Assembly: GCA_044229245.1 (NCBI GenBank)
Contig: JBGATI010000002.1
Coordinates: 261,302-325,301, forward strand
Length of the DNA stretch: 64,000 nucleotides
Direction of reading: 5' to 3'
DNA from: Gemmatimonadales bacterium
GTDB lineage: Bacteria; Gemmatimonadota; Gemmatimonadetes; Gemmatimonadales; GWC2-71-9
In this document: positions 5,411 through 21,487 of the stretch, piece after piece
Numbering within the stretch: position 1 is the stretch's first letter
Layout: every line of letters starts with the position of its first letter
The notes under the pieces: model-generated
What the model was told of the DNA's origin: nothing
Databases searched by the model: none
The model's input: only the letters and a program-made list of their open reading frames with translations
Position numbers and translations under genes: made by a program

Positions 5411-5560
5411 TCAGGCCGCCTTGCAGGCGCAGGTGGCGCCGCAGGTGCAGCTCTCGCCGCACGCGCAGCCGGCTCGGCGCGCCGATTCGGCGTTCTGGCA
5501 GCCGCAGGTGCAGGACGACCCGGGGCAGGTGCTGCAGGTACAGGTGGTCTCGGTGGACAT
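5411..5560 (-). CDS. metallothionein-like cysteine-rich peptide (49 aa)
   Basis: Hand translation: MSTETTCTCSTCPGSSCTCGCQNAESARRAGCACGESCTCGATCACKAA. It has 12 Cys in CxC motifs. GAGGAG lies 7 nt upstream of the ATG, and the stop is 3 nt before the DJ-1/PfpI ATG. It is below the size cut-off of the ORF track. Confidence 0.6.
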   Translation of the reverse strand: MSTETTCTCSTCPGSSCTCGCQNAESARRAGCACGESCTCGATCACKAA

Positions 5561-6232: not shown

Positions 6233-7216
6233 TTGAGCCAGCCAAGCGCAATAGCCGACTCGTCGTTTCAGCGATTCCAGATCTTGAGCCTGGATGGTGG
6301 AGGAATCCGGGGCATTTTCTCGGCTGCAGTTCTGGCCGCAATCGAGGATGACCTCGGCGTTGAGGTTGATAAGCATTTCGACCTAGTGGCCGGAACCTCC
6401 ACAGGGGGCATTATCGCATTGGCGTTGGGCCTTGGGATTCGCCCAAGACAAATTCTAGAGTTCTACGTCAGTTATGGAGCCCGCATTTTCGAAAGACGCT
6501 TTGGGTTGGAATTGATTCAGCATTGGATGATAAGGAAGTACTCGTCGAAACCTCTTGAGTCTGCATTAAAGTCCATATTTGGCGATAAGAGTTTCGGCGA
6601 CAGTTCATTACGATTAGTTGTTCCCGCCTATAACCTCGACACTGACGAGGTGTACAATTTCCGGACGCCGCACCTAGAGCGCCTGAGACGCGATTACAGA
6701 GTTCCTGCATGGAAGGTGGCAATGGCGACAAGCGCTGCCCCTACATTCTTCTCCGCGTATCGTGGTGTAGACTCTGCACGCCTCTTAGATGGAGGCATCT
6801 GGGCGAACAATCCCTCGATGGTAGCGATAGTAGAGGCAGCTTGTGCACTCGATGTGCCAATGGCCAACATTGCGATGTTGAGTATCGGTACGCTTTCGCC
6901 GGTCGTAAGGAGGCGCTCGTATCTAGACTGGGTTGGTCTGTTGGGTTGGGCGAGGAAGGCGCCCGCCCTCATCATGAGGGCAACATCGACTGGAGTGGTG
7001 AATCATGTAAGACACCTGCTTGGTCCGAGTCGCTTCCAGCGAATTGACCCGGCAGTCCCAGATGGGAATTTGGATTTAGATAGCGTCAACTCAGCAGAGA
7101 GCTATTTGGGTCGCGCTGGCCATTTCAGTCGCTCAGCGATGCCAGAGATCCGGGGTCGGTTCTTCGAGCACAAGGCTTCACCCTATACCCCCTTACATAG
7201 AGTGCAACGCGCGTGA
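6233..7216 (+). CDS. patatin-like phospholipase, CBASS effector (CapV-like)
   Basis: LDGGGIRG oxyanion motif, GTSTGG nucleophile elbow and a LLDGG Asp motif. TTG start follows GAGAGAAGGA. The stop overlaps the next gene's start (GTGA). Confidence 0.85.
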   Translation: MSQPSAIADSSFQRFQILSLDGGGIRGIFSAAVLAAIEDDLGVEVDKHFDLVAGTSTGGIIALALGLGIRPRQILEFYVSYGARIFERRFGLELIQHWMIRKYSSKPLESALKSIFGDKSFGDSSLRLVVPAYNLDTDEVYNFRTPHLERLRRDYRVPAWKVAMATSAAPTFFSAYRGVDSARLLDGGIWANNPSMVAIVEAACALDVPMANIAMLSIGTLSPVVRRRSYLDWVGLLGWARKAPALIMRATSTGVVNHVRHLLGPSRFQRIDPAVPDGNLDLDSVNSAESYLGRAGHFSRSAMPEIRGRFFEHKASPYTPLHRVQRA

Positions 7217-8625
7217 GCGGCTCAGATCTTTCATCTCTGTGGGAAGAAGCCATTGCGTCGCTTGACCTTCCAGAGGCGCTCTCCACTGAGGCCGTCCTCA
7301 CATACCAGGATGTCGCATCCTGGCTAGGCGAGCAGGACTCTCCGCTCCAGCCTCATCGCCCTGAGTTGTACCCACAAGGTTCATTCCGACTCGGTACACC
7401 CGTCCGACCTCACAAGGCGAAGGATGAATTTGACATTGATCTTGTGTGCAAGCTGGAAATCAAGAAGGAGCGGATATCCCAAGCTGACCTCAAGCAGATG
7501 GTCGGACGACGGCTTAGAGCGCATCCAGAACATGGCACAAGCGTTGACGAACGGAGGCGTTGTTGGACCATTTCATTCGAGACAAGGTTTCATTTGGATG
7601 TCCTGCCAGCGATTCCTGACGAGGAACAGGCAGGGAGCTCCCTGCTGATCACAGACATGGAGTTAACGAGGTGGCAGCCGAGTAATCCAATTGGCTTTGC
7701 TGACTGGTTCTATTCACGAATGGTTGTTCCGTTGAATGAGAGCCGCGAAGCCCTGGCCAAATCGCTGCGGGCATCGATTGAAGACGTGCCAGTGTGGGCG
7801 GTCCGCACTCCACTTCAGCGAACTGTTCAGCTGCTGAAACGTCATCGCGACGTAAGATTCCGAGGAAGTCCGCAGACGTGCCCCGTATCAGTAATTCTCA
7901 CGACGCTTGCAGCGAAAGCGTATCAGCAGGAGCGAAGGCTTGAGGACGCTATTGTCTCGATAGTGTCGCGGATGCCTGAGGGTATTGAGAAGCGCAATGG
8001 CAAATGGTGGGTGGAGAATCCGGCCCACCCCGACGAGAATTTTGCGGATAAATGGAATGAAGAGCCAGAGAGGCGTGTCGCTTTCCTTAAGTGGCTAGAG
8101 GCGCTTAGCGCCGATGTCTCTTCTATCGCACATTCTGCTTCAAGCCAAGATGCACGCCGCTTGACGGAAGGGCTGTTGGACGTTCAGGGCGCAAAGGAGC
8201 GGTTGTTGTTGGAGTCGACAGTACCTGACGTCGATTCAACGTCTCACATCAAGAGTCCGCTTTGGCCTGTGAGCTTGCGATACCATTGTGGGGTCACAGT
8301 GGGTGTTCACAGACGGAAGCGCCATGGCCCGAGGCTGTGGTACATGGGAGCTCGGCTGGTCCCAAAGAGCGCGGGCCTGAGATTCGAGGCCACAACAGAC
8401 ACTCCGCAGCCCTTCGAGATCAAATGGCAGGTTTCAAATAGCGGCGCGGAGGCCCGTAAGGCAGGAGCGCTGCGAGGAGGGTTCGAAGATGGTGAGGGCC
8501 GGATGGGAAACGTCCGGTGGGAAGAGACACGATACAGGGGCACTCATCTTGTTGAGGCTTTTGTGATAAAGGACGGAGTCGCAGTAGCTAGGTCGGGACC
8601 TGTGCCGGTGCGAGTTGCTAGGTAG
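7213..8625 (+). CDS. CD-NTase / SMODS-type nucleotidyltransferase with a ~130-aa C-terminal extension
   Basis: YPQGSFRLGTPVRP (GS motif), DEFDIDLVC and HLDVLPA give the pol-beta NTase triad pattern. Translationally coupled to the patatin gene. Confidence 0.8.
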   Translation: MSGSDLSSLWEEAIASLDLPEALSTEAVLTYQDVASWLGEQDSPLQPHRPELYPQGSFRLGTPVRPHKAKDEFDIDLVCKLEIKKERISQADLKQMVGRRLRAHPEHGTSVDERRRCWTISFETRFHLDVLPAIPDEEQAGSSLLITDMELTRWQPSNPIGFADWFYSRMVVPLNESREALAKSLRASIEDVPVWAVRTPLQRTVQLLKRHRDVRFRGSPQTCPVSVILTTLAAKAYQQERRLEDAIVSIVSRMPEGIEKRNGKWWVENPAHPDENFADKWNEEPERRVAFLKWLEALSADVSSIAHSASSQDARRLTEGLLDVQGAKERLLLESTVPDVDSTSHIKSPLWPVSLRYHCGVTVGVHRRKRHGPRLWYMGARLVPKSAGLRFEATTDTPQPFEIKWQVSNSGAEARKAGALRGGFEDGEGRMGNVRWEETRYRGTHLVEAFVIKDGVAVARSGPVPVRVAR

Positions 8626-8820
8626 CTCGCTGATTTGACCCGAGCCGAGGCTAGCCGGACGGCCATTTCTGCCGGAAGGTAAGGACCATCCAATCCTCTG
8701 TTCTAAAATCACGCGGCGAGGGTAGTTCGGTCTGCGCAACGAGGTCGCCCAATGCCCTGCATGGCATGGTCAGCCGTGCGAAGTTTGACGATTCTACAGC
8801 GAGCCGCCTGGTTGTGCGCA

Positions 8821-8867
8821 ACAAACCTGCGGCCGCGCCCCGTGGCTGTACGTGCGCCGAGGAGGCC
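8821..8867 (-). repeat. degenerate half-copy of the attC-like element (E8)
   Basis: ACAAACCTGCGGCCGCGCCCCGTGG..GTACGTGCG..GAGGCC aligns with the right half of E13/E15, directly after the GIY-YIG stop. Confidence 0.3.
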
Positions 8868-8870
8868 TCA

Positions 8871-9758
8871 CTAGTTGTCGTTTAGACCCTGTGGGGCACG
8901 AGTCTGCAAACGCCGCTTCCAGCTAGCCTCGATCGCGGAGATGTCACCGGGGTCGAGATCCGGAGAGACGAGTTGGAGGATCGTGAAAGTGAAGTGCTTT
9001 GGATCGCGCTGCCGCAGCAATCTATTACCGCCATGGCCACTCTTGGCGTAGTTCAGCCATCTTCCTAGCAGGTTGTCCTTTCCGGCCGCCGATCCGACGT
9101 AACGCTTTCCATCAGACTCATCGAGGATGTGGTACACCCCACGCCATTGAGAGAGTGTGTCCCTCCATCGCATGGGGAGAAGCTTCAGGTGATCCCAGGT
9201 GAGTGAAATCTCTTGCCACCCTGGCACACCTTGCTCGAGCGCACTATCCTCCAAAATGCTGAGCACCGGCATCTCATTGCGGTGGGCACGACGCCACCAG
9301 GAACGCTCCGGCGGAGGCCACCCGACAGTAAGCTTTCCCTTCCAGTTGGAATAGAAGTCAACAGGCGTAAGCTCAAACCAAAGAAGAGACGATCGCCCGG
9401 GGCTCTTCGTGAACCCCTCCATTCCCAATGTCCTCAGCTCCCGATGAGCTGGAAGCCTCCAGTACTGAGCATGTGTCATGGGCCGTGCCCGGCCAATCTC
9501 GTACAGGCCCACGAACAGCGCTTGACCCGGACGGCGACCCAGAAACGAGGCCAAATAGCCGGTCCGTGTCATCCGATACATCGCGCGCTCAAGCTGTTCG
9601 CCATGGGACTGCTGGTAGGTGTTATACAGGTCAGGCCTCGCGCTCGCGAGCCATGGCATCACCCGGTTCAATTTGCGTTCGTGAGGTCGGTGACGGAGCA
9701 CCAGGACTGACTCGGGGGCAATGCTCTCTCCGCGAAGAAGGTCGTTCAGCTCTAGCAT
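8871..9758 (-). CDS. GIY-YIG nuclease domain protein with uncharacterised ~200-aa N-terminal domain
   Basis: C-terminal WRGVYHILDESDGKRYVGSA...LLGRWLNY...IEASWKRRL gives the GIY, YIG, Arg and Glu motifs. Start moved to ATG 9758 because the longer track ORF runs through repeat E9. Confidence 0.75.
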   Translation of the reverse strand: MLELNDLLRGESIAPESVLVLRHRPHERKLNRVMPWLASARPDLYNTYQQSHGEQLERAMYRMTRTGYLASFLGRRPGQALFVGLYEIGRARPMTHAQYWRLPAHRELRTLGMEGFTKSPGRSSLLWFELTPVDFYSNWKGKLTVGWPPPERSWWRRAHRNEMPVLSILEDSALEQGVPGWQEISLTWDHLKLLPMRWRDTLSQWRGVYHILDESDGKRYVGSAAGKDNLLGRWLNYAKSGHGGNRLLRQRDPKHFTFTILQLVSPDLDPGDISAIEASWKRRLQTRAPQGLNDN

Positions 9759-9781
9759 GACGTGTCTCGGGTAAGAGTGTA

Positions 9782-9908
9782 ACCTCACATCGGCATAAGA
9801 ATCAGGGCCGAAGCTAGTACTCGCGACTGAGGGCGAATCCTCCAGATGATGCAAAACCCTTGGACAAGCCGATGGACGCGCCCCGCCGACACTATTCGGT
9901 TGTGAGAT
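9782..9908 (-). repeat. attC-like imperfect palindrome E9 (127 bp)
   Basis: In gene orientation: CCATCTCACAAC-CGAATAGT-GTCGGCGGGGCGCGTCCATCGG...GCTTCGGCCCTGAT-TCTTATGCC-GATGTGAGGT. Same box order and length as E13, E14 and E15. Confidence 0.5.
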
Positions 9909-10092
9909 GGAAGATTGGTCAGCCTGAGAGGCCAAGCTCATGGACAATGGCCCTCGCGAAGGGAGCCAGGTCGCGGCAATACCTCTGTGCCGCTGAATGT
10001 ACGCGAACCATGTGAGTTTGCAGGTACTTCAGTGTCACCACCGGCACGAGAGCCTGATGATGCTCGTAATCCCCTGGTACCGCGGCAAGAAG

Positions 10093-10740
10093 TCAGTCCA
10101 CATCTCGCAGTTCAGGCTCTGAAGAAGACAGCTTGTATAACATCAGCTGACCATCGAAGACCACAAGCGGAAGGAACACCGCTGCAGATGGGTGAGGCGG
10201 GGAGGAACTACGGCTTGCGGTTGTACGAGCCTTGTCCAGACTCCGTACGGCAGAGCACGCCTGCATCATCGCCGAGTGTGGAGAGGTCGGAGCGTTCTCA
10301 TCCCTGGTTCCGAATGCCTGAACAAGCCCTCCAACGCGGGGAGCAGCCTCCGGGACGATCTCCGGGAAAGGAATATGGTTGAGATTCCCTCCAGCTATTG
10401 CGTGACGCGCCATCTCGCCCATGTACAAGCCGTAGTGCCCGTTCTGGCCGTACTCATTGCCGGAGTGGAAGCCAACCCAGGGCTTGTCGATGCCCGACTT
10501 GCACTCGATAAGGAAGCCGAAGCCAACCGATTCGCCTGCAGGAGTGTGGACCCACGTCAGCGCCGAAACGTCGAGCTCGCGCGGCTTTGCGGTCTGCGAG
10601 TCGGTATACCAAGAGCTATAGGAAACACTCCAACCAGCCTCCTCACAGGCGCGGCCCGTCCGGAGTTCCAGCGGGTAGCCCGTCTTGTCGAGCCACTCGA
10701 GAACCTTCGACGATGGAACTGGAGTCATGGCATCCCTCAT
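10093..10740 (-). CDS. PD-(D/E)xK (restriction-endonuclease-like) fold protein
   Basis: PRELDVSAL ... FGFLIECKSG fits a D...ExK nuclease core. No closer family recognised. Confidence 0.55.
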   Translation of the reverse strand: MRDAMTPVPSSKVLEWLDKTGYPLELRTGRACEEAGWSVSYSSWYTDSQTAKPRELDVSALTWVHTPAGESVGFGFLIECKSGIDKPWVGFHSGNEYGQNGHYGLYMGEMARHAIAGGNLNHIPFPEIVPEAAPRVGGLVQAFGTRDENAPTSPHSAMMQACSAVRSLDKARTTASRSSSPPHPSAAVFLPLVVFDGQLMLYKLSSSEPELRDVD

Positions 10741-10807
10741 TGCCGTCTAACGACTCGTCATAAGCTTCGAGTCGCAATCCATCCTGCCAAGCCGGGGCTT
10801 TGGCAGC

Positions 10808-11830
10808 CTAGTTCCCCGCCGCCGGTAACGAATCGACATGCGCCAGGAACGCTCTCGTCACCGCGAACATTGCCGCCGGGTTGTCCCACGTCGTCACATG
10901 CGCCGCGCCGGGGATGATCTCGACCTTGGCACCGGGCGTGAGTGAGGCGAAGTGCTGGATGGTCGCGGGATTGGCCTCGTCGAACTCCCCTACTGTGTAG
11001 AGCAGCGGCACCTTGACCTGCGGCAGGAACGGCGTCGCGTCATAGTGCTTGAGCGTCCCGACGATCGTGAACTCGCTGGGGCCCTGCATGTAGTTGTAGA
11101 TCCGTTCGTTCACCGTCTGCATCAGGCTGTCGAGCTCGACCTGTACGGGGTGACGCCAGACGTAGCGGCTGTAGAACTCGCCGAGTGCGGCCTGGTAGGC
11201 CGGCGTGGTGGTGTTGCCGCTCTTCTCGGCCTCACGGATGGCGCGCTGGGCCGAGTCGGGCAGGGTGGTGATCAGCTCGCGGGCGTGGCGTTCCCAGGCG
11301 GGGATGTCGAGCGCGGCGCTGCCGAGGATCAGGCCGGCCACGTGATCGGGGTGGGCGCGGTAGTACTCGAGGGCGAGGATGGTCCCCCAGGAGTGGCCGA
11401 GCAGGTAGACCCGGTCGGTCGCGAGCGCTCGGCGCACCGAGTCGAGTTCCGCGACGAAGTGCGGGATGTTGAAGACCGTGGTATCGGTGATGCGGGTCGA
11501 CTTGCCGCCGCCGAGCTGGTCGTAGCGGATCGTCGGGCGATCGAGGCCGAGCGAGTCGAGTACGCGGAGGTAGAAGCTCGAGTACCCCGGGCCGCCGTGG
11601 AGGAGGATCACGGGTGTCGCCGTGCCGCCGCCCGAGACCCGATACCAGAGGCGCCCACCGGGCACATCGAGGAAGCCTTCGCGTGCGGTGAGCGTCGTGG
11701 GGCTGGGGGCCGCGGCGACGGGTGACGCCTTGGGGCGGTCGGTGCAGGCGGCGAGGAGGAGCAGGGCGGCGAAGACTGAGCTTCCCGATGTTCGCGCCTT
11801 TGACACCGCTATGCGGATGTTAGGATGCAT
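10808..11830 (-). CDS. prolyl aminopeptidase / alpha-beta hydrolase (possible lipoprotein)
   Basis: VILLHGGPGYSS and LLGHSWGT motifs; host-like high GC. The start is uncertain. ATG 11830 or 11854 gives a lipobox LLLLAAC but overlaps the PIN-like stop and repeat E11. An internal GTG (DVPGG) start is also possible. Confidence 0.8.
   Translation of the reverse strand: MHPNIRIAVSKARTSGSSVFAALLLLAACTDRPKASPVAAAPSPTTLTAREGFLDVPGGRLWYRVSGGGTATPVILLHGGPGYSSFYLRVLDSLGLDRPTIRYDQLGGGKSTRITDTTVFNIPHFVAELDSVRRALATDRVYLLGHSWGTILALEYYRAHPDHVAGLILGSAALDIPAWERHARELITTLPDSAQRAIREAEKSGNTTTPAYQAALGEFYSRYVWRHPVQVELDSLMQTVNERIYNYMQGPSEFTIVGTLKHYDATPFLPQVKVPLLYTVGEFDEANPATIQHFASLTPGAKVEIIPGAAHVTTWDNPAAMFAVTRAFLAHVDSLPAAGN
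11701..11826 (-). repeat. degenerate attC-like element E11, overlapping the iminopeptidase 5' end
   Basis: In gene orientation: TCCTAAC-ATCCGCATAGCG-GTGTCAAAGGCGCG ... CGCCGCGGCCCCCAGCC. The left arm shares the 11-mer GGGCCGCGGCG with E14 and E15. Confidence 0.4.
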
Positions 11831-13043
11831 CAGAATCCCAGATCGCATCCACATAAGTCACACTGTCGAGGGCTGGGGATTTGAGGTGGCCCGTCGTCGT
11901 AACTGAGACAGACCATGTAACGTCCACATTCCCCGTCCCGCTGGCGACCGTCTGGTCGAGTTGAAAGGAGTTCATCGACGGGGCGAAAATCGATGGATCA
12001 AAGCTGCTTTTCGCTAGATCCATGCCTTCGGGAAACTTATACAGAGAACTTAAGTTGAGTGTTGCCTTAGACAGGGGCGGGGTCTCTGCTTGGATCGAGG
12101 AGCTTAGAAGGTTCTGCCGAAGCAGGCCCCACGTTCCCATTGACGGACTCTTTTGCGCGACAATGCCGGCATTGAAGCGAGTCAAGAGTGTGATCTTTTG
12201 CCCTTGCTTCCTTACAAAGCGGGGCGGATTAATCGTCCACTTGCCGATGCTGAACTTGTCTGCTCCTTGCGGCAATGTGACAGGTGCGTTGTCGAGTGCA
12301 GCTCGGAGAGCTTGGCCCAGGCCCCACTTGTAGTAGAGTGTATCCTTGTCGCCTGTTAGGAAGAATAGTCTGCCTGCGCGAATGAGAATCTGTCCTATGA
12401 ACGCCTCATCGGCGGTCGATGCAAGTGTATTTATCAGGCCTTTCAGGGAATCAATCGAGTCAAGAACATGAACATTTGTTGCGTTTGAGACGCGCTCCGA
12501 CACCGCGGTCTGAAGGAGCTCGTCGGCTGACACGATCGCAAGACGACACGTTGAAGGAGACGCTGGCGAGGTGGCGATCAGCTGCGCGAACGCTTCAAGT
12601 ACCAACGCATCCCGAAAGCCCTTCTCCTTCTCACCAGAGCTAAATGGCGGACGACGGAACGCCGCATCGCTGGCGAGACGCTTCCAATCTACCTGGCTGG
12701 CATCCAACTGAAGAAGTTCCAGGCCATGATCTGAAATCTGTCTTGCTATTGCCTCATTTACGCGCGTATCTAGGATGTCCGTCGTGATGTTGAGCTTGTG
12801 GCCAAGGAGGCGCTCGAGCTTGGCTACGGGATCGAGGAAGCGGCGCGCTTCTGTGAGCATCTGGAAGTGGCGTTCATCGCGGACTGTCTGAGGGATCATC
12901 CAGTGTATGCGGAGATCCGGTAGGCCCTTGTGCTCTGCTATGAGGTCGGCAATCTCCTTACGAATAAAGTAGCTCGCTGAGCCGGTATAAAGAGCGTTGG
13001 TGTCCAAGACTACTTTGAGGTCGCGACTCTTCGGCTTCGGCAT
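11820..13043 (-). CDS. PIN-like (DUF4935-type) predicted RNase with ~200-aa unknown C-terminal domain
   Basis: VVLDTNALY at the N-terminus, then GFRDALVLEAF and LAIVSADELL, fit the PIN acidic residues. The C-terminal half is Ser/Thr-rich and beta-like with no recognisable motif. Confidence 0.65.
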   Translation of the reverse strand: MPKPKSRDLKVVLDTNALYTGSASYFIRKEIADLIAEHKGLPDLRIHWMIPQTVRDERHFQMLTEARRFLDPVAKLERLLGHKLNITTDILDTRVNEAIARQISDHGLELLQLDASQVDWKRLASDAAFRRPPFSSGEKEKGFRDALVLEAFAQLIATSPASPSTCRLAIVSADELLQTAVSERVSNATNVHVLDSIDSLKGLINTLASTADEAFIGQILIRAGRLFFLTGDKDTLYYKWGLGQALRAALDNAPVTLPQGADKFSIGKWTINPPRFVRKQGQKITLLTRFNAGIVAQKSPSMGTWGLLRQNLLSSSIQAETPPLSKATLNLSSLYKFPEGMDLAKSSFDPSIFAPSMNSFQLDQTVASGTGNVDVTWSVSVTTTGHLKSPALDSVTYVDAIWDSDAS

Positions 13044-13063
13044 AGGCCAGTAGGTTATAGGTA

Positions 13064-13191
13064 GGTCTGTTACCCCGAAGGTGTTTCAGGGCGACGGCCA
13101 GATCAGTCCAGTATGAGGTACGACTGCGGGCGGTACAAGCCCTACCACAAACCGATCGCGGCGCCCTGTCAACGTCGTGCGATTGTCAGCC
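13064..13191 (-). repeat. attC-like imperfect palindrome E13 (128 bp)
   Basis: In gene orientation: GGCTGACAAT-CGCACGAC-GTTGACAGGGCGCCGCGATCGG...GGCCGTCGCCCTGAAAC-ACCTTCGG-GGTAACAGACC. It begins 4 nt after the Abi_C stop and ends 20 nt before the PIN-like ATG. Confidence 0.55.
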
Positions 13192-13195
13192 AGCT

Positions 13196-14044
13196 TCACT
13201 TCTCTGAACGCTTATCCCAGCTCTCGATAACAAAGATTGCGAGGCTATGCGCCGCGTTGACCACGACCCTAGCGTGTCTCGGCTCAAGCTTGTACCTCGG
13301 CCGACCACGGCCATGAGCCGAGCCGGTGTGAGTGCGGAAGCTTCCCAAACCCTGAACGATCGAGGTGAGGCCACCGAGCACCTTCTTCAGGTCATCGTCC
13401 TCGACCGCCTTCGGATCAAAGCCCAACTGGCTCTGAACCACCTTCCAGAGCGGGTTGATTGATTGATCTGTCGGCAGCTCGAGTTTCTCATCGGAGATAT
13501 AGACTTTGAAGAGTGCCTCGAGGATAGAGCAGGCTGCTGTAACTGCCGCACCAGGATCGCCGGTGACGCCGGCTAAGGCTCGCTCGAATTCGTCGTTGAC
13601 CCCGCCGAGATCCCTATCGCGAATCAAGTCCTCGAGTTGGCGAGCCGGGACGGCCGTGCTCCGCGAGACAATCTTGCCCCCGCGCATGTACTCAAAGCCG
13701 TTCTCTCCCAGGATTCGAGTGATCCGGGCTTTGGCCTTCTGGTGTCCTTCGTTGTCAAAGTTTCGTGGCATGTCCGTGTCCATGATATCTTCAAGGACGC
13801 GGCCCAGGACTTTCTGCCCGTTCAAACCAGGAGTGTTGGCCACTCGCCTAAGCCAAGCCGCGGCTTTGGCGGAACACCCCCCCTCCGGTGGGTCCCCCGG
13901 AGCCCCCGACTCTTCGAAAAGAGCTTCGATTGTGGCGTGGTGGAAGTAGTACCGACCTACTATGTCGCCGACAACCGAAGCTATGGCATTGGGGAAGTGT
14001 GGATTCAAGAAGTGCTTCCATTCATGCTGGCTTACGCCCCGCAT
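13196..14044 (-). CDS. Abi_C (abortive infection C-terminus) domain protein
   Basis: C-terminal LGSFRTHTGSAHGRG matches the remembered Abi_C signature (R..x.aHG). The N-terminal half is unassigned. Confidence 0.6.
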   Translation of the reverse strand: MRGVSQHEWKHFLNPHFPNAIASVVGDIVGRYYFHHATIEALFEESGAPGDPPEGGCSAKAAAWLRRVANTPGLNGQKVLGRVLEDIMDTDMPRNFDNEGHQKAKARITRILGENGFEYMRGGKIVSRSTAVPARQLEDLIRDRDLGGVNDEFERALAGVTGDPGAAVTAACSILEALFKVYISDEKLELPTDQSINPLWKVVQSQLGFDPKAVEDDDLKKVLGGLTSIVQGLGSFRTHTGSAHGRGRPRYKLEPRHARVVVNAAHSLAIFVIESWDKRSEK

Positions 14045-14155
14045 AAGTTGCAGGGCCGCGGCGCGCTCACCGCGGTAGGGTATCCCAGAAAAAGTCGTGC
14101 CATTGCCTTCGCTATCCGACGGCCGCGCTCTGCCAACTTCATGCCTTTGTTAGAC
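14029..14155 (-). repeat. attC-like imperfect palindrome E14 (127 bp)
   Basis: In gene orientation: GGTCTAAC-AAAGGCATGAA-GTTGGCAGAGCGCGGCCGTCGG...CGCGCCGCGGCCCTGCAAC-TTATGCGG-GGCGTAAGCC. It overlaps both the putAbiC stop and the Abi_C start. Confidence 0.55.
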
Positions 14156-15170
14156 CGCGCTCATCCGCGCGAAGATAGGCTGGCAATGAACGATCCGTGT
14201 TCTGCCATTCGAAATAGCCAGTTGGGAACAGCTTAGCCGCGTCCAACTCAAGCAGGGAATCGAAGAAGTCTCGTGGAAGATTCTTAACAAGCTTGTACCC
14301 AAGCATGTGCCCATCAGACCACCATACGTAGCCCAATGGGGTCAAAGAGTTCAGGAGAAAGAGAGCTTGCTCGTGTGTCGAGAACTGGGCGCGAACTGTC
14401 CTAACGTATTCATACTTGTCAACAGGCACGTCGGTTTTGTGAACGAACCCGACCAGCTGATATAGATGCCGGTAATAGTGACCAAGCCGAGATTGATGCC
14501 CTTGGAAGGGAATGTAGCGACCAGGCTTGCCATGCTTTCGGAAGAACGCTGCCTCCATTTCCAAGACGCGCGATACGTGTCGAGCCAGTTTGCGCTGATG
14601 ATCATCCAAGGTTGCCTCTACAAGTCGCCCGGAGTGGGCTCCGGCGCCATAGTAGAAGAAGTAATAGCTGATCTGAATTGCGTCGAGCGGAACAATGCGA
14701 ATGTTGTTGCGCCTTGCCTCTGCATGGACAACGCGGAGAATTCTCCGCCATTCCGAGAAAAGCTTAACGAATACAACTCTCCCTAGGCGTTTGCCTACTG
14801 CAATCGTGTCCGCGTTTGAGCGGTGTAGCGCTAGCAGGGTGTTGAACCGCGTCGCAAACCCTTCTGACGAGGCTGTGCGTCTCTGAGCCCTTAGCGTGGC
14901 CACGAGGAGTACGACGCTCACTAAGCCGAAGTATGTGCCAACGTAGCCGCCAACGAACTCGCCAAAGAGCGCCGCACTATTCCGGTCCAGCGTCCACGTT
15001 TCCCTGAAGGCAGGAGGGATGAAGGCAAGGTTAATGACGAGGAGCCCGACGATGAGTATGCCTATTTCGAGCGCGAGCGAGCGCGCTTTACGAAGGGATC
15101 GTGCAAGCCACATGTCGTAGCAGACCATAGTTAGCGAAAAGTAGCGGCAAACAAGATCGGGACCTGACAC
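14139..15170 (-). CDS. putative phage abortive-infection protein (putAbiC-like), N-terminal TM helices
   Basis: Two N-terminal hydrophobic helices followed by FQGHQSRLGHYYRHLYQLVGF, remembered as the putAbiC family signature. The true start may be ATG 15128 or 15110, because GTG 15170 lies inside repeat E15. Confidence 0.6.
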   Translation of the reverse strand: MSGPDLVCRYFSLTMVCYDMWLARSLRKARSLALEIGILIVGLLVINLAFIPPAFRETWTLDRNSAALFGEFVGGYVGTYFGLVSVVLLVATLRAQRRTASSEGFATRFNTLLALHRSNADTIAVGKRLGRVVFVKLFSEWRRILRVVHAEARRNNIRIVPLDAIQISYYFFYYGAGAHSGRLVEATLDDHQRKLARHVSRVLEMEAAFFRKHGKPGRYIPFQGHQSRLGHYYRHLYQLVGFVHKTDVPVDKYEYVRTVRAQFSTHEQALFLLNSLTPLGYVWWSDGHMLGYKLVKNLPRDFFDSLLELDAAKLFPTGYFEWQNTDRSLPAYLRADERGLTKA

Positions 15171-15289
15171 CGCCCATTAGTTGCAGGGCCGCGGCGCGTT
15201 TCACTGCAGTATGGAGTGCTTCAGAAGGTCGAGCCAGCCCCTACACAAACCGACGGCCGCGCCCTTTCAACGTCATGCGGTTGTGAGCC
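15160..15289 (-). repeat. attC-like imperfect palindrome E15 (130 bp)
   Basis: In gene orientation: GGCTCACAAC-CGCATGAC-GTTGAAAGGGCGCGGCCGTCGG...CGCGCCGCGGCCCTGCAAC-TAATGGGC-GGTGTCAGGTCC. The last box is close to the reverse complement of the first. Confidence 0.55.
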
Positions 15290-15305
15290 GACGTGCAAAG
15301 GCGTC

Positions 15306-16184
15306 CTATTCGTCGGTACACCGTGGCACTCCTTCGGTCGTGGCAGGGGCGAGTGAGTGCTGAGCTGGCGGGCCAGCAAAGATGGCGCATGTCAGACCCG
15401 TGGCGGTCAGCGCCGTAGCGGCATGGCCAGATGCGTTCCCATGCGCCAGAGTGAATGTTATGCCTTCGGAGGGATAGAACCGGAGGTCAGACATGCTCGA
15501 TGCGTAGGAATTGTGCTCGGAGAAGTAGGCTTCCTGCGCGACGATATAGTTGCGGAGATCGCTCCTCGCGGCGGCTCGCAGGGATGCGCCGCGGGTGCGC
15601 TCCTGGAGCTTGGCAATGAGCGGTCCGAGATCGTCTATACCAATGACACGCCAGCCTCCGTCGCCCTTCTCGAGCTTCAAGGCGACATCAAAGCTGTCTG
15701 CTCCTGGACGACCAACGCGAATCGTGACCAACGCAAGCCTGCCTTTGGTCTGAGTCTTCAGGATGCCCCTGAAGGCTGAGATGACCGTATCTCTCGAGAC
15801 TTGTTCTGAAGAGGATCCCGCAAACGCAGGAAAGGTGAGAGGTCCGCCCGAGGCGAACGAATTGACACCGGTGGTTATCCCTCGAACTAGCATCGGCTTC
15901 ATTGAAGTTACCATGGCACCGCCAAGAGCAGTCCCGAGTGCCTCAAACCCCGAGTTACTGCTCGTGCTCATTGACTGGGCGAGTGAGGCATCAACAAACT
16001 GATCGACTGCGGCAGCCACTGTTCGCTGGACATCCATCCGGGCCTCGACTCCGAGCTTGTCTCCCTTCTTGAACGCTTCTCCCAGTTCACGAACAGCATC
16101 GTCTGGCCCAGATGCACAGCCGGCGGCAAGTATTAGCGCGGTGATTGGAGCGAGCCAACTGGCGTTAGTGCCGAGAGGGGGCAT
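15306..16184 (-). CDS. lipoprotein with C-terminal type IV pilin-like segment
   Basis: AGGAG lies before the ATG. Lipobox ILAAGC. AARSDLRNYIVAQEAYFSEHNSYASSMSDL resembles the pilin globular-domain start. Confidence 0.55.
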   Translation of the reverse strand: MPPLGTNASWLAPITALILAAGCASGPDDAVRELGEAFKKGDKLGVEARMDVQRTVAAAVDQFVDASLAQSMSTSSNSGFEALGTALGGAMVTSMKPMLVRGITTGVNSFASGGPLTFPAFAGSSSEQVSRDTVISAFRGILKTQTKGRLALVTIRVGRPGADSFDVALKLEKGDGGWRVIGIDDLGPLIAKLQERTRGASLRAAARSDLRNYIVAQEAYFSEHNSYASSMSDLRFYPSEGITFTLAHGNASGHAATALTATGLTCAIFAGPPAQHSLAPATTEGVPRCTDE

Positions 16185-16280
16185 TCAATGCTCCTGCTAG
16201 GGTCACGAAAGTACACGACGTCGGCTAACGCAGATTCGCAGTCCGCACATCGCACATAGTCACTTCTTGCTCTTCATCTC

Positions 16281-16526
16281 TCAAAACACCCCCACCCTCC
16301 GCCCCTCCCTCGCCTCCGTCACCGCATACCGCCCGGCCGCCGACCGCTCGACCCGCACCCGAGGGCCCCCCACCTGTAACCCGAACCTGCCATTCGACGA
16401 GTCGGGCTGGATCAGCAGCGCCACCCCGCCCGTTCCGCTGGCGTCGAGCGTCGCATGGGCACCCGGCTCGAGGTCGAACCCCGCCGGCGTCGCCAGGATC
16501 GTGTCCCGGCCGGCGGCGGGCGTCAC
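16281..16526 (-). CDS. short high-GC ORF, possibly a remnant of a host gene at the island edge
   Basis: 81-aa GTG-initiated ORF with protein-like composition (DTILATPAGFDLEPGAHATLDASGTGGVALLIQPD...). A TGA stop lies about 50 nt upstream in frame. No family recognised. Confidence 0.25.
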   Translation of the reverse strand: MTPAAGRDTILATPAGFDLEPGAHATLDASGTGGVALLIQPDSSNGRFGLQVGGPRVRVERSAAGRYAVTEAREGRRVGVF

Positions 16527-17005
16527 CGACCCCGCGATCCGCGCCCCGGCGCCGGCGGTGGTGAGCTTGAACTGGGGGCTTTCGGCACTGTCCGGTCAGG
16601 AAGCAATCCGGTGCTGCTCCCGCAGGACCCGCGCGGAACTCCGACCGGGCCCGACCAGGGTCGCAGTCAGGAGTGCCGCGGAGAAGAGGGAGCATGGCAT
16701 CGGATCCCCCGCCTGCACCCAGCGGCTCCTGGCCATCCCCAACCTGCTAGGCAAGTCGGGACCGCGCCAGTACCGCCATTGAGCCGAGTCAGGCAGACGT
16801 CAGGAACGCCACCCGCGCCCGTCAGCTCGCTCGGCAAATTCTTCCGGCCGCGAGGCCGGATCATATATGATCGCGTCGTCCCGCGGCCTCACACTCCCGC
16901 CCCCGCTGTCACTTTCCACCCCGCACGCACGTCCTATCAGGTGTCCGACACTGTCCACGCGAGTGTCCACCGACTGTCCTCGTGGACACTTTTCGGAGAC
17001 ACTGC

Positions 17006-17420
17006 ACAAGATCGCCGAATCGATTTTCCAGCCCGCCGTTTCGATTTCCAGACCGCCGAAACAACTGTCAGATTCCTGAACAGTCCGTCCAGGCGACCGA
17101 ATCAGTTGTCGAGCCCGCCGAAACATTCTTCCAGCCTCCCGAAACGACTCTCCAGGCCCGCGAAACAGTCGTCGAGATCGGCGAAACATTTCTCCAGACA
17201 GCCGAAACGAATCTCCGGACGACCGAATAGGTTCTCCAGCCCGCCGAAATGAAGTTCTGAGAGACGAATCGAACATCCGGACAGCCGCAGTAAACGTCCC
17301 GTTCGCTGGATGAGATGTCCAGTGCGCCGCACTGGATGTCCAGCGCACTGAACTGGACGTCGAGCTCACCGAACACGACGTCCAGCGCGCCGCGCTGAAC
17401 TCCAACTCTGCCGCCTCACA
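17006..17420. repeat. tandem 21-bp repeat, about 20 units, with three 20-bp units
   Basis: Units such as ccagcctcccgaaacgactct, ccaggcccgcgaaacagtcgt and cgagatcggcgaaacatttct. On the minus strand they read as the heptad F-G-x-L-(E/D)-x-x, and the reading phase changes at each 20-bp unit. Confidence 0.8.
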
Positions 17421-17642
17421 CCCCGATCCAGTCGCCGTCAAAATTCTTGGCGATCGAAATGATTGTCGAGCCGATGGAAGCGCCCGCCTGACACCGACAT
17501 CCCGCATCTGGCACAGAACTTACCGACGGTGCCCCCCGGCCCGTGCTCGGTCGACACGGGACCGCACTTCAACAGCACAGGACTGACGCGGGGTCGAGTT
17601 CTCGACCGGACTCCGCGGCCACGCTCACGAAAGGAGCGTCGT

Positions 17643-18341
17643 ATGACGGATTACATCAGCAGAGTGTTCGACATGGTCCTCCGCGTGCTGGTCTTCCTGC
17701 ACGCGAACCCCCTCGACACGCCCGCGTTCACCGCGAACCTGGCGCTGCTCGAGGCCGGCGCCGCCAGACTGAAGGAGCTGGCCGACATGGAACGGAGCGG
17801 TCACGTCGAGGCGAGTGCCGCCGTGATCGGGAAGAAGGAGGGGAAGGCCAATATCCTCGACGGCCTGAACTTCCTCGGCCGCGTCGCCATGGTCGCCACC
17901 CGAGAAATGCCGGAGATGCCGGTGCGGCTCACGATGCCTAAGCCGAACAGCGGGGCGCAGAAGCTGATCACCGGTTCCCGGGTGGTGGTGACCCAGGCGC
18001 GGGCCCAGCAGGAGCTGCTCACCAAGTACGGGATGACGACCGGGTTCCTGGATGAGCTCACCGTCTCGATCGACCAGTACGAGAAGGCGGTGAACACCAA
18101 GTCCTCCGGCGTCAACACGCACATCGGCGCCGCCGCCGAGATGGAGTCGGTGACCCGCGAAATCACTCGGCTCGTGAAGGTGATCGATGCCGTGCTGCGT
18201 CGGCGCCTGCGGAACGACCCGCAGAAGCGCGCCGCGTGGAAGGCTGCTCGCACGATCGTTCGTCATACGCCGAAGCCGGCGGAGGATCCGGCCGAGACAC
18301 CGACGCCGCCGAAGGCAGGGAGCGAGTCGCCGGCGGCGTGA
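17643..18341 (+). CDS. hypothetical protein
   Basis: ATG preceded by AAAGGAG. 232 aa, helical-looking, with a Pro/Ala-rich tail. The start was trimmed from track ORF 17463..18341. Confidence 0.65.
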   Translation: MTDYISRVFDMVLRVLVFLHANPLDTPAFTANLALLEAGAARLKELADMERSGHVEASAAVIGKKEGKANILDGLNFLGRVAMVATREMPEMPVRLTMPKPNSGAQKLITGSRVVVTQARAQQELLTKYGMTTGFLDELTVSIDQYEKAVNTKSSGVNTHIGAAAEMESVTREITRLVKVIDAVLRRRLRNDPQKRAAWKAARTIVRHTPKPAEDPAETPTPPKAGSESPAA

Positions 18342-18345
18342 TTTT

Positions 18346-18466
18346 AGTACTTAGTGCTTAGTGCTTAGTGCTTAGTGCTTGGTCTCAGGCACTAGGCACT
18401 AGGCACTAAGCACTCATTCGCACCCGGAACCCGGAACCCGGAACCCGGAACTAAGCACTAAGCACT
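18346..18466. repeat. heptanucleotide array H1: (AGTGCTT)n hairpin plus (CCGGAAC)4 plus (TAAGCAC)2
   Basis: agtacttagtgcttagtgcttagtgcttagtgctt GGTCTC aggcactaggcactaggcactaagcact, then cccggaa x4. Lies between two convergent stop codons. Confidence 0.9.
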
Positions 18467-18801
18467 CCATAGGCCAGCACTGCCATGAGGATCCCCAGCA
18501 CGCTCACCATGATGATCGCCGGGGTTTCGCGGTACTTCACATGGACGCCGATGAAGACCAGGCTCTCGAGCGCGAGGACCGCGGCGGCCACGCCGGTCAG
18601 CACCGGCGAGAGGTGGAGGAGTGGCGGGAGAATGAAGCAGGCGACGCAGATGAGCTCGACGACGCCGAGTGCGGTCCAGGCCCGCTTCGGCAGCGCACCG
18701 AAGGAGGGAACGTCGACGCTGACCTTGTCGAACATGAACACTTTCATGATGCCGGACGCGCCGTACACGAGCGTGGCGAGACCCTGCAGGACCCAGAGCA
18801 T
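18451..18801 (-). CDS. DoxX-like family membrane protein
   Basis: 116 aa with four hydrophobic helices and a DoxX-like layout. The last codons GVLSA-TAG lie inside array H1. Confidence 0.75.
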   Translation of the reverse strand: MLWVLQGLATLVYGASGIMKVFMFDKVSVDVPSFGALPKRAWTALGVVELICVACFILPPLLHLSPVLTGVAAAVLALESLVFIGVHVKYRETPAIIMVSVLGILMAVLAYGVLSA

Positions 18802-18818
18802 ATGCGCTCCCTGTGTTG

Positions 18819-18902
18819 AGTACTCAGTACTTAGTACTCAGTACTTAGTACTTAGTGCATAGTGCTTAGTACTCGGAACTCGGAACTCGGTACTCGGAAC
18901 TA
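18819..18902. repeat. heptanucleotide array H2
   Basis: (AGTACTC/AGTACTT/AGTGCTT) x8 followed by (GGAACTC) x4. Confidence 0.9.
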
Positions 18903-19205
18903 TCAAGCTTTTCCCCGCATCTTCGCCGCCCACCAGCGGAGGCCGACGAAGAGGAAGCGCCAGTCGTGGAAGAACTCGGGCGGCTTGCCTTCTACCGCGT
19001 GGCCGATGAACTGCAGCGCCCACCCGGCCACGAACAGCCCCAGCGCCACGGGCCAGAGGCCGTGCACGAATAAGGAGAGAGCGAAAAGGACGAGGGAAAC
19101 GACGATGGTCGGGATGCCAAGGGTGTGGCAGAACCGGTTGAACGGATGCTGATGACTCAGGCCGTACTGGGCGATCCATTCATTCCACGGGCGTCCACCG
19201 AGCAT
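18903..19205 (-). CDS. DUF962 (Mpo1-like) membrane protein
   Basis: HPFNRFCHTLGIP ... FIGHAVEGKPPEFF is typical of DUF962. Start trimmed to ATG 19205, which is preceded by AGGGAG. Confidence 0.8.
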   Translation of the reverse strand: MLGGRPWNEWIAQYGLSHQHPFNRFCHTLGIPTIVVSLVLFALSLFVHGLWPVALGLFVAGWALQFIGHAVEGKPPEFFHDWRFLFVGLRWWAAKMRGKA

Positions 19206-19222
19206 AGGCGCTCCCTGTGTTG

Positions 19223-19299
19223 AGTGCTTAGTACTAAGTACTAAGTACTTAGTGCATAGTGCGCAGTACTCGGAACTCGGAACCCGGAACTCTGAACTA
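19223..19299. repeat. heptanucleotide array H3
   Basis: (AGTGCTT/AGTACTA/AGTACTT/AGTGCAT...) x7 followed by (GGAACTC/GGAACCC) x3-4. Its terminal GAACTA supplies the TAG stop of the next gene. Confidence 0.9.
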
Positions 19300-19929
19300 T
19301 TGGTCGCTCCACCGAAACGTCCGCCCGACGGCCCGCAGCCGCCCGAGCAGCGTGGTGTTCTCGCGGTCTCGGCTGTCGACCGAATACTCGATGACGGCGA
19401 TCCGTCCCCTGCTCCCCGCCACCAGCGCCTCGGAGCTGCAGCCCTCGCAGTGGAGCGCCAGGCGGAGGGCGGTGTCCGAACCAAGGAGCACCGAAGGCAA
19501 CTCGGTCGGCCGGGGATCGAAGCTGCTCGGATTCACCGGCGCATCCATCCGGAAGTGGTCGCGCATCCACTGCTTGAGGCCCAGCCGGCGCGCGTCCTGG
19601 AAGGTGGTGACCGTCACGGCGCACGGCCACGAGCACTCCGGCAGGTCGGTGACCCGGAACTTCCGGTTGGCGGGACGATCGGGGTCCCGCCAGCGGGCGT
19701 CGGCCACGGCGGGGACAGTGAGCGTGAACCCGCCGCCATCGGCGATCTGGGTCGAGTCCCACGAGCCGGGATGCGGGAGCCCGAAGCCGGGCGTGGCCTG
19801 ATGATCGGCGGGAACCATCGAGGCCATGGCGGTCTCGTCGGTCGAGTCGGCATCGGCCGACGCCGGCGGCGAATCGCCCTGGTGACAGGCCGAGAGCAGG
19901 ACGAGCAGCAGTAACGGATGGTGGCGCAT
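19297..19929 (-). CDS. lipoprotein, unknown function
   Basis: MRHHPLLLLVLLSAC lipobox; 210 aa; no family recognised. Confidence 0.6.
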   Translation of the reverse strand: MRHHPLLLLVLLSACHQGDSPPASADADSTDETAMASMVPADHQATPGFGLPHPGSWDSTQIADGGGFTLTVPAVADARWRDPDRPANRKFRVTDLPECSWPCAVTVTTFQDARRLGLKQWMRDHFRMDAPVNPSSFDPRPTELPSVLLGSDTALRLALHCEGCSSEALVAGSRGRIAVIEYSVDSRDRENTTLLGRLRAVGRTFRWSDQ

Positions 19930-20013
19930 GGGTCCCTGGGCGGGCCGACGGACGGGGATAACCTGCGGGCCGCAACGGAGGAACGCCAGTGCCCGCGGGA
20001 GCCCGCGCGGGAG

Positions 20014-20140
20014 CGCTCGGCTGAGGCCAGTAAACTGGCCCGGTCCATTCCTTAGCGTCGCTTCAGCGACATCAGCCGAGCCGTCGCTTCAGCGACGAGC
20101 TCGGACGGGGTGAGGCCGCGTTCAATCGCGGCCCCCACAT
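20014..20140 (+). repeat. multi-hairpin repeat S1
   Basis: GCTCGGCTGAGGCCAGTAAACTGGCCC..GTCGCTTCAGCGACATCAGCCGAGCCGTCGCTTCAGCGACGAGCTCGG..GGCCGCGTTCAATCGCGGCC. One of three copies. Confidence 0.85.
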
Positions 20141-20226
20141 TCGAACCTCGGAACTCGAAACCCGAAACCCGGAACCCGGAACTAAGCACCAAGTACTAAG
20201 TACTAAGTACTAAGTACTAAGTACTA
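20141..20226. repeat. heptanucleotide array H4
   Basis: (CGGAACC-type) x5-6 followed by (TAAGTAC) x6. Confidence 0.9.
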
Positions 20227-21215: not shown

Positions 21216-21238
21216 GGGTGACTAACGCCGCGAGGAGG

Positions 21239-21487
21239 TCATCGGTTCCGCTGCCGCAGCTTCGCCAGCGTCGCCTTGAGATAGCGCCGATACCCCGCCG
21301 GGCTCATCCATCCCTTCGGCGCAGGAACTCGGCGCAGTCGCCGGGGCGCAAACTCGACGAACTGATCGCTCGACCCGGAAACTCTCCGCACCCGCACCCG
21401 CCAGCGCGCGGCGATCCGGGCCCGGATCCGGCCGATGCGGCCATCCGGGAGCCGCACGCAATCGCCAACGGCGAGCCTCGTGGTCAT
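21239..21487 (-). CDS. small basic hypothetical protein (82 aa)
   Basis: MTTRLAVGDCVRLPDGRIGRIRA.... Trimmed from track ORF 21239..21778, which otherwise runs through repeats S2 and H5. Confidence 0.4.
   Translation of the reverse strand: MTTRLAVGDCVRLPDGRIGRIRARIAARWRVRVRRVSGSSDQFVEFAPRRLRRVPAPKGWMSPAGYRRYLKATLAKLRQRNR

Follow-up and report, generated by a model that had tools for sequence, protein, structure and literature searches.

We analysed a 64,000-nucleotide (nt) stretch of a Gemmatimonadales contig (GenBank assembly GCA_044229245.1, contig JBGATI010000002.1, forward-strand positions 261,302 to 325,301), hereafter the window (positions 1-64,000). At approximately 8.7-16.2 kb its minus strand carries a row of genes interspersed with copies of a palindromic element, which we read as the attC recombination site of integrons. 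The segment 8734-16229 (minus strand) is very probably an integron gene-cassette array without an integrase, i.e. an attC-site cluster with no integron integrase (CALIN). Its genes and sites are listed below in minus-strand order. R″ and R′ denote the outer boxes at the 5′ and 3′ ends of a site, ORF an open reading frame, aa amino acids, and GC3 the GC content at third codon positions. The nhmmer E values come from a search of the whole 64 kb with a hidden Markov model (HMM) built from 150 metagenomic copies of the element, with the window copies excluded. Related loci are cited by locus number (L) and their own coordinates.

16221-16229, minus strand: array start, GTTAG followed by CCGA, an R′-type core with no attC upstream; the first cassette runs from the TT (16228)
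15306-16184, minus strand: cassette 1 ORF, lipoprotein, 292 aa; LAAGC lipobox by reading; GC3 0.62
15162-15289, minus strand: attC E15, 128 nt; R″ = GGCTCAC, R′ = GTCAGGT; nhmmer E = 2e-24
14139-15128, minus strand: cassette 2 ORF, putAbiC-domain protein, 329 aa; Pfam PF16872, E = 1.8e-19
14029-14155, minus strand: attC E14, 127 nt; R″ = GTCTAAC (canonical), R′ = GTAAGCC; nhmmer E = 6e-25
13196-14044, minus strand: cassette 3 ORF, AbiJ-like protein with Abi_C (HEPN) C-terminus, 282 aa; Pfam PF14355, E = 9.6e-20; PADLOC AbiJ, E = 1.2e-14
13064-13191, minus strand: attC E13, 128 nt, decayed; R″ = GGCTGAC; nhmmer E = 1e-15
11820-13043, minus strand: PIN_12-domain protein, 407 aa; Pfam PF16289, E = 6e-9
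10808-11854, minus strand: proline iminopeptidase-family hydrolase with lipoprotein signal peptide; TIGR01250, 242.6 bits (above cut-off)
10745-10807, minus strand: truncated attC, about 63 nt, 3′ arm retained, between the hydrolase gene and ORF 10093-10740
10093-10740, minus strand: ORF, 215 aa, function unassigned; no family match
9782-9908, minus strand: attC E9, 127 nt; R″ = ATCTCAC, R′ = GTGAGGT; nhmmer E = 2e-10
8871-9758, minus strand: last cassette ORF, UzuA (Uzume defence system, GIY-YIG nuclease domain), 295 aa; PADLOC PDLC03973, E = 1.5e-73; Pfam GIY-YIG, E = 1e-3
About 8734-8868, minus strand: terminal attC E8, about 135 nt, strongly decayed; R′ = GTTGCGC; end of the array

The array comprises seven genes, five full attCs and one truncated attC, with all sites on the minus strand at spacings of 964-3283 nt. 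A first-pass annotation, made from the sequence alone, had also counted seven genes separated by such elements, but five of its six elements hold up, as full sites, and it had missed the truncated one. The four good copies that it had reported (E15, E14, E13 and E9) lie where it had placed them, and all four are matched by the window-excluding HMM. A fifth match at 8751-8843 (E = 2e-4, HMM positions 25-125) reads out in full as E8; the short stretch 8821-8867, formerly called a degenerate copy, is attC sequence but only part of this decayed full-length site. No further HMM match below E = 0.08 was found in the 64-kb window. A second supposed degenerate copy, at 11701-11826 ('E11'), was rejected because it lies in the region coding for the signal peptide of the hydrolase lipoprotein, where the stop codon of the PIN_12 gene overlaps the ATG of the hydrolase gene; it scored E = 0.035 with a covariance model and E = 0.085 with the HMM. 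When the motif AGGGCGCGGCCGTCGG was scanned with up to three mismatches, 18 matches were obtained in the window versus 6.7 +/- 2.5 in shuffled sequences, and the five within the array were all on the minus strand and included the only two with fewer than three mismatches. An Rfam scan of the window gave nothing at the gathering threshold, which says little, as the library is blank for these elements.

E14 is the best preserved of the window copies, and the minimum-energy fold of its bottom strand has two single-base bulges on the R″-L″ arm with a 6-bp stem between them. E15 is 88% identical to L017:3934-4054, and its R and L boxes are paired in the bottom-strand fold. In E9 the central base pair is altered on both sides, so that pairing is preserved, and in E13 the R′ box is unrecognisable (..GGTAACAGACC). 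The last bases of the truncated site (10745-10751) form a canonical R′, GTTAGAC, with the next ATG 4 nt further on, and by eye about 20 of 28 positions agree with the family 3′ arm ...AGCTTATG..GTCGTTAGAC. The array start at 16221-16229 is an attI-like or secondary-site junction.

Most of the gene identities proposed earlier (putAbiC, Abi_C/AbiJ, PIN_12, iminopeptidase-family hydrolase, GIY-YIG/UzuA) were borne out by profile matches. The exception was the PD-(D/E)xK label of ORF 10093-10740, for which Pfam, PADLOC and NCBIfam were all without a match. The lipoprotein label of cassette 1 stands on its lipobox, while a DUF2939 match remained under its cut-off. For the putAbiC ORF the 329-aa gene call was taken from L001, and its stop codon sits within the L″ box of its own attC (E14). 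The PIN_12 gene has lost its own attC. The hydrolase gene has a host-like GC3 of 0.88, and a homologue that is 73% identical (L045:388-1341) is a single-gene cassette between attCs at 212-341 and 1367-1499. The C-terminus of ORF 10093-10740 is 73% identical to L008:6664-6843, which is then followed by an attC in that locus. As predicted from these matches, the cargo is mostly anti-phage genes (putAbiC, AbiJ-like, PIN_12 and UzuA). It is also AT-richer than its surroundings, as had been noted, the GC content being 58.8% in the array versus 69.2% in the remaining window.

Relatives of the element were collected with a degenerate 5′-arm pattern, which led to Gemmatimonadales metagenome-assembled genomes, and with a refined pattern, which led to at least 120 soil and sediment contigs; the covariance model was built from the four window copies and the HMM from 150 of the matches. 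Among the matches listed, from Gemmatimonadales metagenome-assembled genomes and soil or sediment metagenomes, there were 414 copies in 127 loci. In all loci with two or more copies, every copy was on one strand. The median spacing was 701 nt, the copies formed one class of about 100 nt and another of about 130 nt, and the largest array seen had 27 sites in 16 kb (L142). A pattern scan of viral contigs gave 0 matches. The earlier concern that the element might be scattered among core genes did not materialise, as copies were seen only in co-oriented arrays. Mixed arrays also occur, in which unrelated canonical attCs of 95-121 nt stand alongside sites of the family (L085). L085:6300-7627 in that soil array includes a cassette gene of the beta-lactamase fold (PF00144, E = 3e-38), after which comes a canonical attC of 104 nt (GTCTAAC...GTTAGAT).

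Inspection of the 150 copies indicates a 5′ arm of R-Y-C-T-A-A-C, then N-A-C-C-G, then C-A-T-[G]-A-A-G-C-T-G-[N]-C-A-G-G-G-C-G-C-G-G-C, followed by a variable centre, and a 3′ arm of G-C-C-G-C-(G)-G-C-C-C-T-G-C-A-G-C-T-T-A-T-G, then C-G-G-G-G-(T)-C, then G-T-T-A-G-R-C. R″ is RYCTAAC, with T, A, A and C each present in 148-150 of 150 copies, and R′ is GTTAGRC; on the top strand the 5′ box fits RYYYAAC and the 3′ box GTTRRRY. In the family as a whole, 300 of the 317 R″ boxes that could be scored read CTAAC, and 293 of the 307 R′ boxes read GTTAG. One arm has a 5-nt spacer (NACCG, positions 8-12 counted from the first R″ base) and the other a spacer of 5-6 nt (GGGG(T)C); pairing would be possible for the inner spacer bases, CC with GG and G with C, these being 95% paired. 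The bases at positions 16 and 23 from the first R″ base (alignment columns 19 and 26) are unpaired, and a stem of 6 bp lies between them. These extrahelical bases are on the R″-L″ arm, opposite to the arm with the bottom-strand AAC. On the bottom strand, the base at 16 is C instead of the usual G, and the base at 23 is variable, T being the commonest. Published attC sites have extrahelical bases at 16 and 23 or 24 with a required 6-bp stem between them and a 5-6-base spacer in each arm, and attCaadA7 has G16 and T23 (PMC5027507). As aligned here, the family consensus agrees with this published anatomy.

The hairpin itself is conserved. Across 149 distinct sequences, 94% of cells were paired, versus at most 43% with slid partners, and 15 pairs showed compensatory changes (165 cells), a value reached by 0 of 500 shuffles, although the alignment was fitted to a model already containing part of the structure. 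The pairs at alignment columns 16-18 and 20-21, which were absent from the fitted model, were nevertheless at least 95% paired. The first-pass annotation had named the lack of a conserved fold as a ground for dropping the idea, and the fold turned out to be both conserved and covarying. Two of its reservations are also accounted for. The 8-11-nt spacers came from mis-registered boxes, L″ having been put at GTTG in the middle of the L stem, where the true spacers are 5 and 5-6 nt. The boxes do fit RYYYAAC/GTTRRRY only loosely in the window, where one core base pair is substituted in most copies, but the family (RYCTAAC/GTTAGRC) is not divergent. A local ACAAC/GTTG hairpin, which RNAalifold gave for the four window copies, was dropped once the 150 copies showed the long-range attC fold.

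A crossover between G and TT of R′ would assign the bases on its 3′ side to the next cassette, so that they would be expected to pair with the R″ region there. When the 4 nt that follow GTTAG in one site were set against the 4 nt that precede CTAAC in the following site, they were fully complementary in 80% of 186 consecutive pairs, versus 8% for the R″ of the same site and 5% for random pairs (Mann-Whitney, p = 3e-48). In the two arrays of a relative described below (L142 and L143), 36 of 42 pairs were complementary. This pattern is the signature of the crossover between G and TT, with a resolution that places the crossover within or before GTTAG rather than at the exact phosphodiester bond. 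In the window, GTTAG-CCGA at the array start (16221-16229) is complementary to TCGG-CTCAC of E15 (4/4, cassette 1), GTAAG-CCAG of E14 to CTGG-CTGAC of E13 (4/4, cassette 3), and GTTAG-ACGG of the truncated attC to CCAT-CTCAC of E9 (3/4, the cassette of the 215-aa ORF).

The position of the array was compared with that in a syntenic relative (ENA ERZ25039554 contig_29599, loci L139 and L142), which shares window positions 16287-32036 at 76-88% nucleotide identity. Contig JBGASX010000125.1 of assembly GCA_044229445.1 also matches this side of the array, at 90-97% identity over window positions 16934-24005. The conserved flank begins with the following gene.

16281-16700, minus strand: gene for a small secreted protein, adjoining the array on its upstream side and in the same orientation, with an in-frame TGA in the window

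The homologue of this gene in the relative (L139:8626-9051) is intact (141 aa), and no family assignment was obtained for it, NCBIfam included. Homology with L139 ends at its stop codon (16281-16283; the limit is put at about 16278), about 50 nt from the array start, and the GTTAGCC junction lies 55 nt past that stop codon. At the syntenic position the relative has at least 27 attCs with entirely different cassettes (HEPN_AbiU2, TonB_C, BrnT, MazE/PemK and others), among them the toxin-antitoxin cassettes BrnT, MazE/PemK and RHH+PIN. An identical gene order in relatives had been proposed as a counter-argument; what is seen is a complete turnover of cassettes. In addition, a 645-nt unit (L142:9975-10619, with identical coordinates in L143) is 100% identical in the arrays L142 and L143 of one metagenome sample. 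Identity collapses right at the R′ box, and the left end of the unit lies within the 3′ arm of the upstream attC, with no finer placement. A second cassette is common to L142:19891-20522 and L143:270-901 in a different relative order, and the shared cassettes, whose neighbours differ between the two arrays, are 98-100% identical. The interior of the L143 array contains two IS30-like (HTH_38 + rve) copies. These results show that cassettes are mobile and are exchanged between arrays in the relatives. A comparison of synteny by tblastx gave only noise on these GC-rich loci and was discarded.

In an array of this kind, each unit is a promoterless ORF followed by its attC. An integron integrase (IntI) would recognise the attC bottom strand in its folded form and cleave R′ between G and TT; cassettes would accordingly leave as circles and be inserted at the array head. 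The recombinase is probably an IntI encoded elsewhere in the genome or since lost, and what remains would be a set of mainly anti-phage genes (putAbiC, AbiJ-like, PIN and UzuA), fixed in place beside an operon of the cyclic-oligonucleotide-based anti-phage signalling system (CBASS).

Several results weigh against this interpretation. The query IntI1 (100% identical to the 4144-member database cluster P0003) gave a best tblastn value of E = 0.085 in the 64-kb window, far from the array, which agrees with the earlier statement that the window has no intI; there is none within 48 kb upstream or 8.7 kb downstream of the array. No Phage_integrase domain was found by Pfam in flanking ORFs (about 2.4-5.4 kb and 16.2-22.2 kb). 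Nor did tblastn with IntI1 find an integrase in 138 related loci (584 kb) or in L139-L143, about 0.7 Mb in total, and the precomputed Pfam lists of L139-L143 contain no Phage_integrase, only the IS30-like transposases in L143. Four array starts (the window, L016, L009 and L139/L142) consist of a GTTAGNN junction with neither attC nor integrase upstream, and Pfam found no integrase among the array-start ORFs of L016, L009 and L085. A weak IntI1 match in L085/L036 was rejected, being an artefact of low-complexity sequence in a cassette gene and on its wrong strand. Searching a database with IntI1 gave close class 1 relatives only, and context look-ups with homologues of the flanking gene and of one cassette gene returned arrays without an integrase or unrelated prophage and island contexts. 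As no integrase was observed, the link to IntI rests on the anatomy of the sites. Further, the boundary between cassettes 1 and 2 (E15 to E14) is not complementary (GTCC and ACCG, 1/4). Minimum free energies of single copies did not differ from shuffles (z = -0.7 to +0.7), a measure that is uninformative for GC-rich hairpins with a variable centre. Our own generic attC scanner, which demands strict R boxes and arm complementarity and was judged too crude as a test, found canonical sites in the relatives and none in the window or in shuffles. The scanner is blank in the window because the R-box cores are altered there; with the central base freed it recovered only E14 and two short palindromes in coding regions (4846-4902 and 7614-7668). 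Finally, the idea developed below that the array is immobilised comes from a single array and from IntI1 data, IntI1 being a distant integrase.

The array is not a complete integron in the sense of adjacent intI, attI and cassette promoter Pc. A sedentary chromosomal integron has more than 19 attCs or occurs species-wide and has an integrase, whereas the window holds 5-6 attCs and no integrase; in the syntenic relative 27 attCs are in view and an integrase is not. As defined for IntegronFinder, a CALIN has two or more attCs that share a strand and are spaced by less than 4 kb, and no nearby integrase (PMC4889954), and this describes the array. CALINs are common, and 95% of them have no intI pseudogene nearby (PMC4889954). 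Of the options that the first-pass annotation had left side by side, its first, a CALIN-type array, is the one that the evidence supports.

The window sites have decayed to different degrees. Out of 35 conserved columns, 4 were changed in E15, 2 in E14, 12 in E13 and 7 in E9. E8 can hardly be recognised any more, a further attC is truncated, and the PIN_12 gene has none left behind it. This rise of decay with distance from the head fits insertion at the array head. The changes in the R boxes are concentrated at one position, the central base pair (A of CTAAC, the third base of GTT), which was substituted in 6 of 10 scorable boxes in the window versus 14 of 624 in the family (Fisher's exact test, p = 9e-8). 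The R″ cores in the window are CTCAC, CTAAC, CTGAC and CTCAC, and the R′ cores GTTAG, GTCAG, GTAAG, GTTAG, GTGAG and GTTGC; of these, only the R″ of E14, the truncated attC and the first junction keep the canonical triplet in an otherwise unaltered core. In the scored CTNAC/GTNAG boxes no other core base is changed; R′ of E8 (GTTGC) differs at positions 4-5. In the syntenic relative, all but one of 44 sites have CTAAC/GTTAG. Across a cassette the window variants are uncompensated (T with C, C with A, A with G), so the substitutions probably arose after insertion. In IntI1 the conserved lysine K171 makes base-specific contact with the triplet's final T and the middle A of the opposite strand, and mutation of T3 in both partner sites lowers recombination 17- to 150-fold (PMC2811028). 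By analogy, the window cassettes are probably poorly excisable now and the array largely immobile. Either non-excisable cassettes are the ones that have survived, or selection may have relaxed once the integrase was lost. A stronger joint proposal would be that (a) the array is naturally 'locked' by independent third-base substitutions, through selection for or survivorship of non-excisable defence cassettes, and that (b) arrays of this Gemmatimonadales lineage sit at a conserved chromosomal site lacking an integrase in cis, where they are built and turned over entirely in trans or by an unrecognised recombinase; we regard this combination as quite doubtful.

A somewhat unlikely alternative is that the array is the same element and still active, served in trans by an IntI encoded elsewhere that does not read the third base of the triplet. 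Apart from R′ of E13 and GTTGCGC of E8, the head cassettes have kept the other core bases and the 4-nt complements at their boundaries, which is unlike uniform neutral decay. GTCAG/CTGAC variants in pairs are also seen, at low frequency, in arrays that look healthy (e.g. L059 and L009), half of the CALINs lie in genomes that encode IntI (PMC4889954), and the cassettes of the relative have turned over completely at the same locus with no integrase in cis. Against this alternative stand the lack of compensation of the window variants across a cassette and the state of the sites, with one attC deleted, one truncated and two heavily decayed. The near-uniform CTAAC/GTTAG cores of the relative moreover imply that the integrase of the family evidently selects that very base pair.

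That a recombinase other than IntI acts on attC-like hairpins, which would make this a different or highly divergent integron class, seems very improbable. It would fit the lack of an IntI-like gene near more than 400 sites in about 0.7 Mb, the four array starts included, and the fact that array starts adjoin the small secreted-protein gene and not an integrase. The features of an IntI substrate are, however, reproduced to the nucleotide (RYYYAAC/GTTRRRY cores, 5-6-nt spacer, extrahelical bases 16 and 23 with the 6-bp stem, crossover inside R′). Most contigs are also short, long arrays make it unlikely that a random attC is found beside intI, the arrays of the relative reach the contig ends, and Gemmatimonadota are already listed among the integron-bearing phyla (PMC8618304). 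A generic intergenic repeat of the repetitive extragenic palindrome (REP) type or a transcription terminator hairpin is hardly credible: the element is indeed a GC-rich imperfect palindrome after stop codons with unremarkable single-copy folding energies, but no copy was found in the remaining 56 kb of the window, nor in the core-gene flanks of L139-L141, terminator-like sites numbered 2 versus 6.1 expected with none within an attC and no T-run terminators, and neither a terminator nor a REP explains the complementary boundaries of neighbouring sites or an identical cassette in two arrays.

A CALIN-type integron array thus remains the preferred reading, and a second defence locus adjoins it.

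6233-8625, plus strand: CBASS operon of two genes, one for a patatin phospholipase effector (PADLOC E = 1.4e-102), the other for a CD-NTase that has an AGS_C sensor domain (E = 7.5e-148)

The CBASS operon converges on the end of the array and has a low GC3 (0.57-0.58). It was considered as an inverted cassette and rejected, there being no attC on its strand nor at its far side; it is a defence-island neighbour of the array and not a demonstrable cassette. Between this operon and a DJ-1/PfpI gene lies a cysteine-rich ORF of 49 codons (5411-5560, minus strand; MSTETTCTCSTCPGSSCTCGCQ...CACKAA), which is metallothionein-like by eye. A Bor-family lipoprotein gene (3826-4245, minus strand) has homologues of 74-76% nucleotide identity on the attC-bearing contigs L133 and L114, and in L133 the homologue is placed between two attCs; the gene in the window has a host-like GC3 and no recognisable attC.

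On the other side of the array, about 18 tandem copies of a 20-21-nt unit (TCCAG.CCGCCGAAAC..TTC-like) occupy 17009-17392, in a divergent intergenic region of about 940 nt between the secreted-protein (pseudo)gene and orf17463. The same repeats are present in the syntenic relative (L139:9362-9712) and might be binding sites of a regulator. The product of orf17463 (17643-18341, plus strand) belongs to a family of 232-aa proteins with no Pfam or NCBIfam match, and members lie near cassette arrays in three Gemmatimonadales loci, including L016:1953-2624 and L008:838-1635. It was considered as an array-associated recombinase and rejected, having no family match, a different arrangement in L008, and two paralogues without an array in L140. 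Farther on, perfect or near-perfect tandem arrays of heptamers (ACTAAGT, CGGAACC/ACCCGGA, AGTACTC, TTAGTGC and AGTGCTT; 4-11 copies each) were found in the intergenic spacers 18344-18451, 18819-18901, 20181-20226, 21676-21744, 22207-22281, 24016-24051, 24848-24874 and 29172-29288. Two of them flank a small DoxX-like gene, and similar arrays occur in L141.

The array adds a further example of an already known type of element, and what is of minor interest is the third-base pattern and the conserved integrase-less position. It nevertheless documents well an attC family and a cassette array of Gemmatimonadota, a phylum of soil bacteria whose integrons have seldom been described in detail. The family model together with the test of boundary complementarity offers a simple way to mine cassettes from soil metagenomes, more than 400 sites having come from one pattern scan. 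The change of the third GTT/AAC pair may be a natural record of cassette fixation in a genome, and the single-gene cassettes predicted to act against phages would extend the view of integrons as defence stores beyond Vibrio and clinical integrons.

Among known systems, the chromosomal integrons of Xanthomonas have inactivated integrases and fixed arrays, and the likeness lies in a static cassette array at a conserved chromosomal position; in Xanthomonas the intI gene or its pseudogene is still beside the array, unlike here, where no intI is detectable. CALINs were proposed in 2016 as a step between gene capture and genomic stabilisation (PMC4889954). The array resembles them in having at least two same-strand attCs less than 4 kb apart with no intI or recognisable pseudogene nearby, and in its cargo, as CALIN cassettes are mostly of unknown or non-resistance function (PMC4889954). 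Unlike them, it occupies a chromosomal position shared with a relative that has at least 27 cassettes there, and it shows position-specific substitution of the third GTT/AAC pair. The superintegron of Vibrio cholerae likewise has long attCs that are highly similar within an array (the V. cholerae repeat, VCR, of about 123-133 nt; here about 100 and 130 nt), small promoterless cassettes (here with a median spacing of 701 nt), toxin-antitoxin cassettes (here in the array of the relative) and a 6-bp extrahelical spacing. The present array differs from it in its phylum, Gemmatimonadota, in having no adjacent intI or attI in sight and only seven genes, and in the first extrahelical base of the bottom strand, C in place of the usual G, the second being variable with T the commonest. 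Defence genes in integron cassettes, Abi_C proteins included, were reported in 2024-2025 (bioRxiv 10.1101/2024.07.02.601686 and 10.1101/2024.07.02.601719). Like those, the window cassettes hold single defence genes, one of them of the Abi_C/AbiJ-like type (compare 'Taranis' of V. cholerae), but they are predicted here from sequence, come from another host phylum, and include other genes, namely putAbiC, PIN_12 and UzuA.

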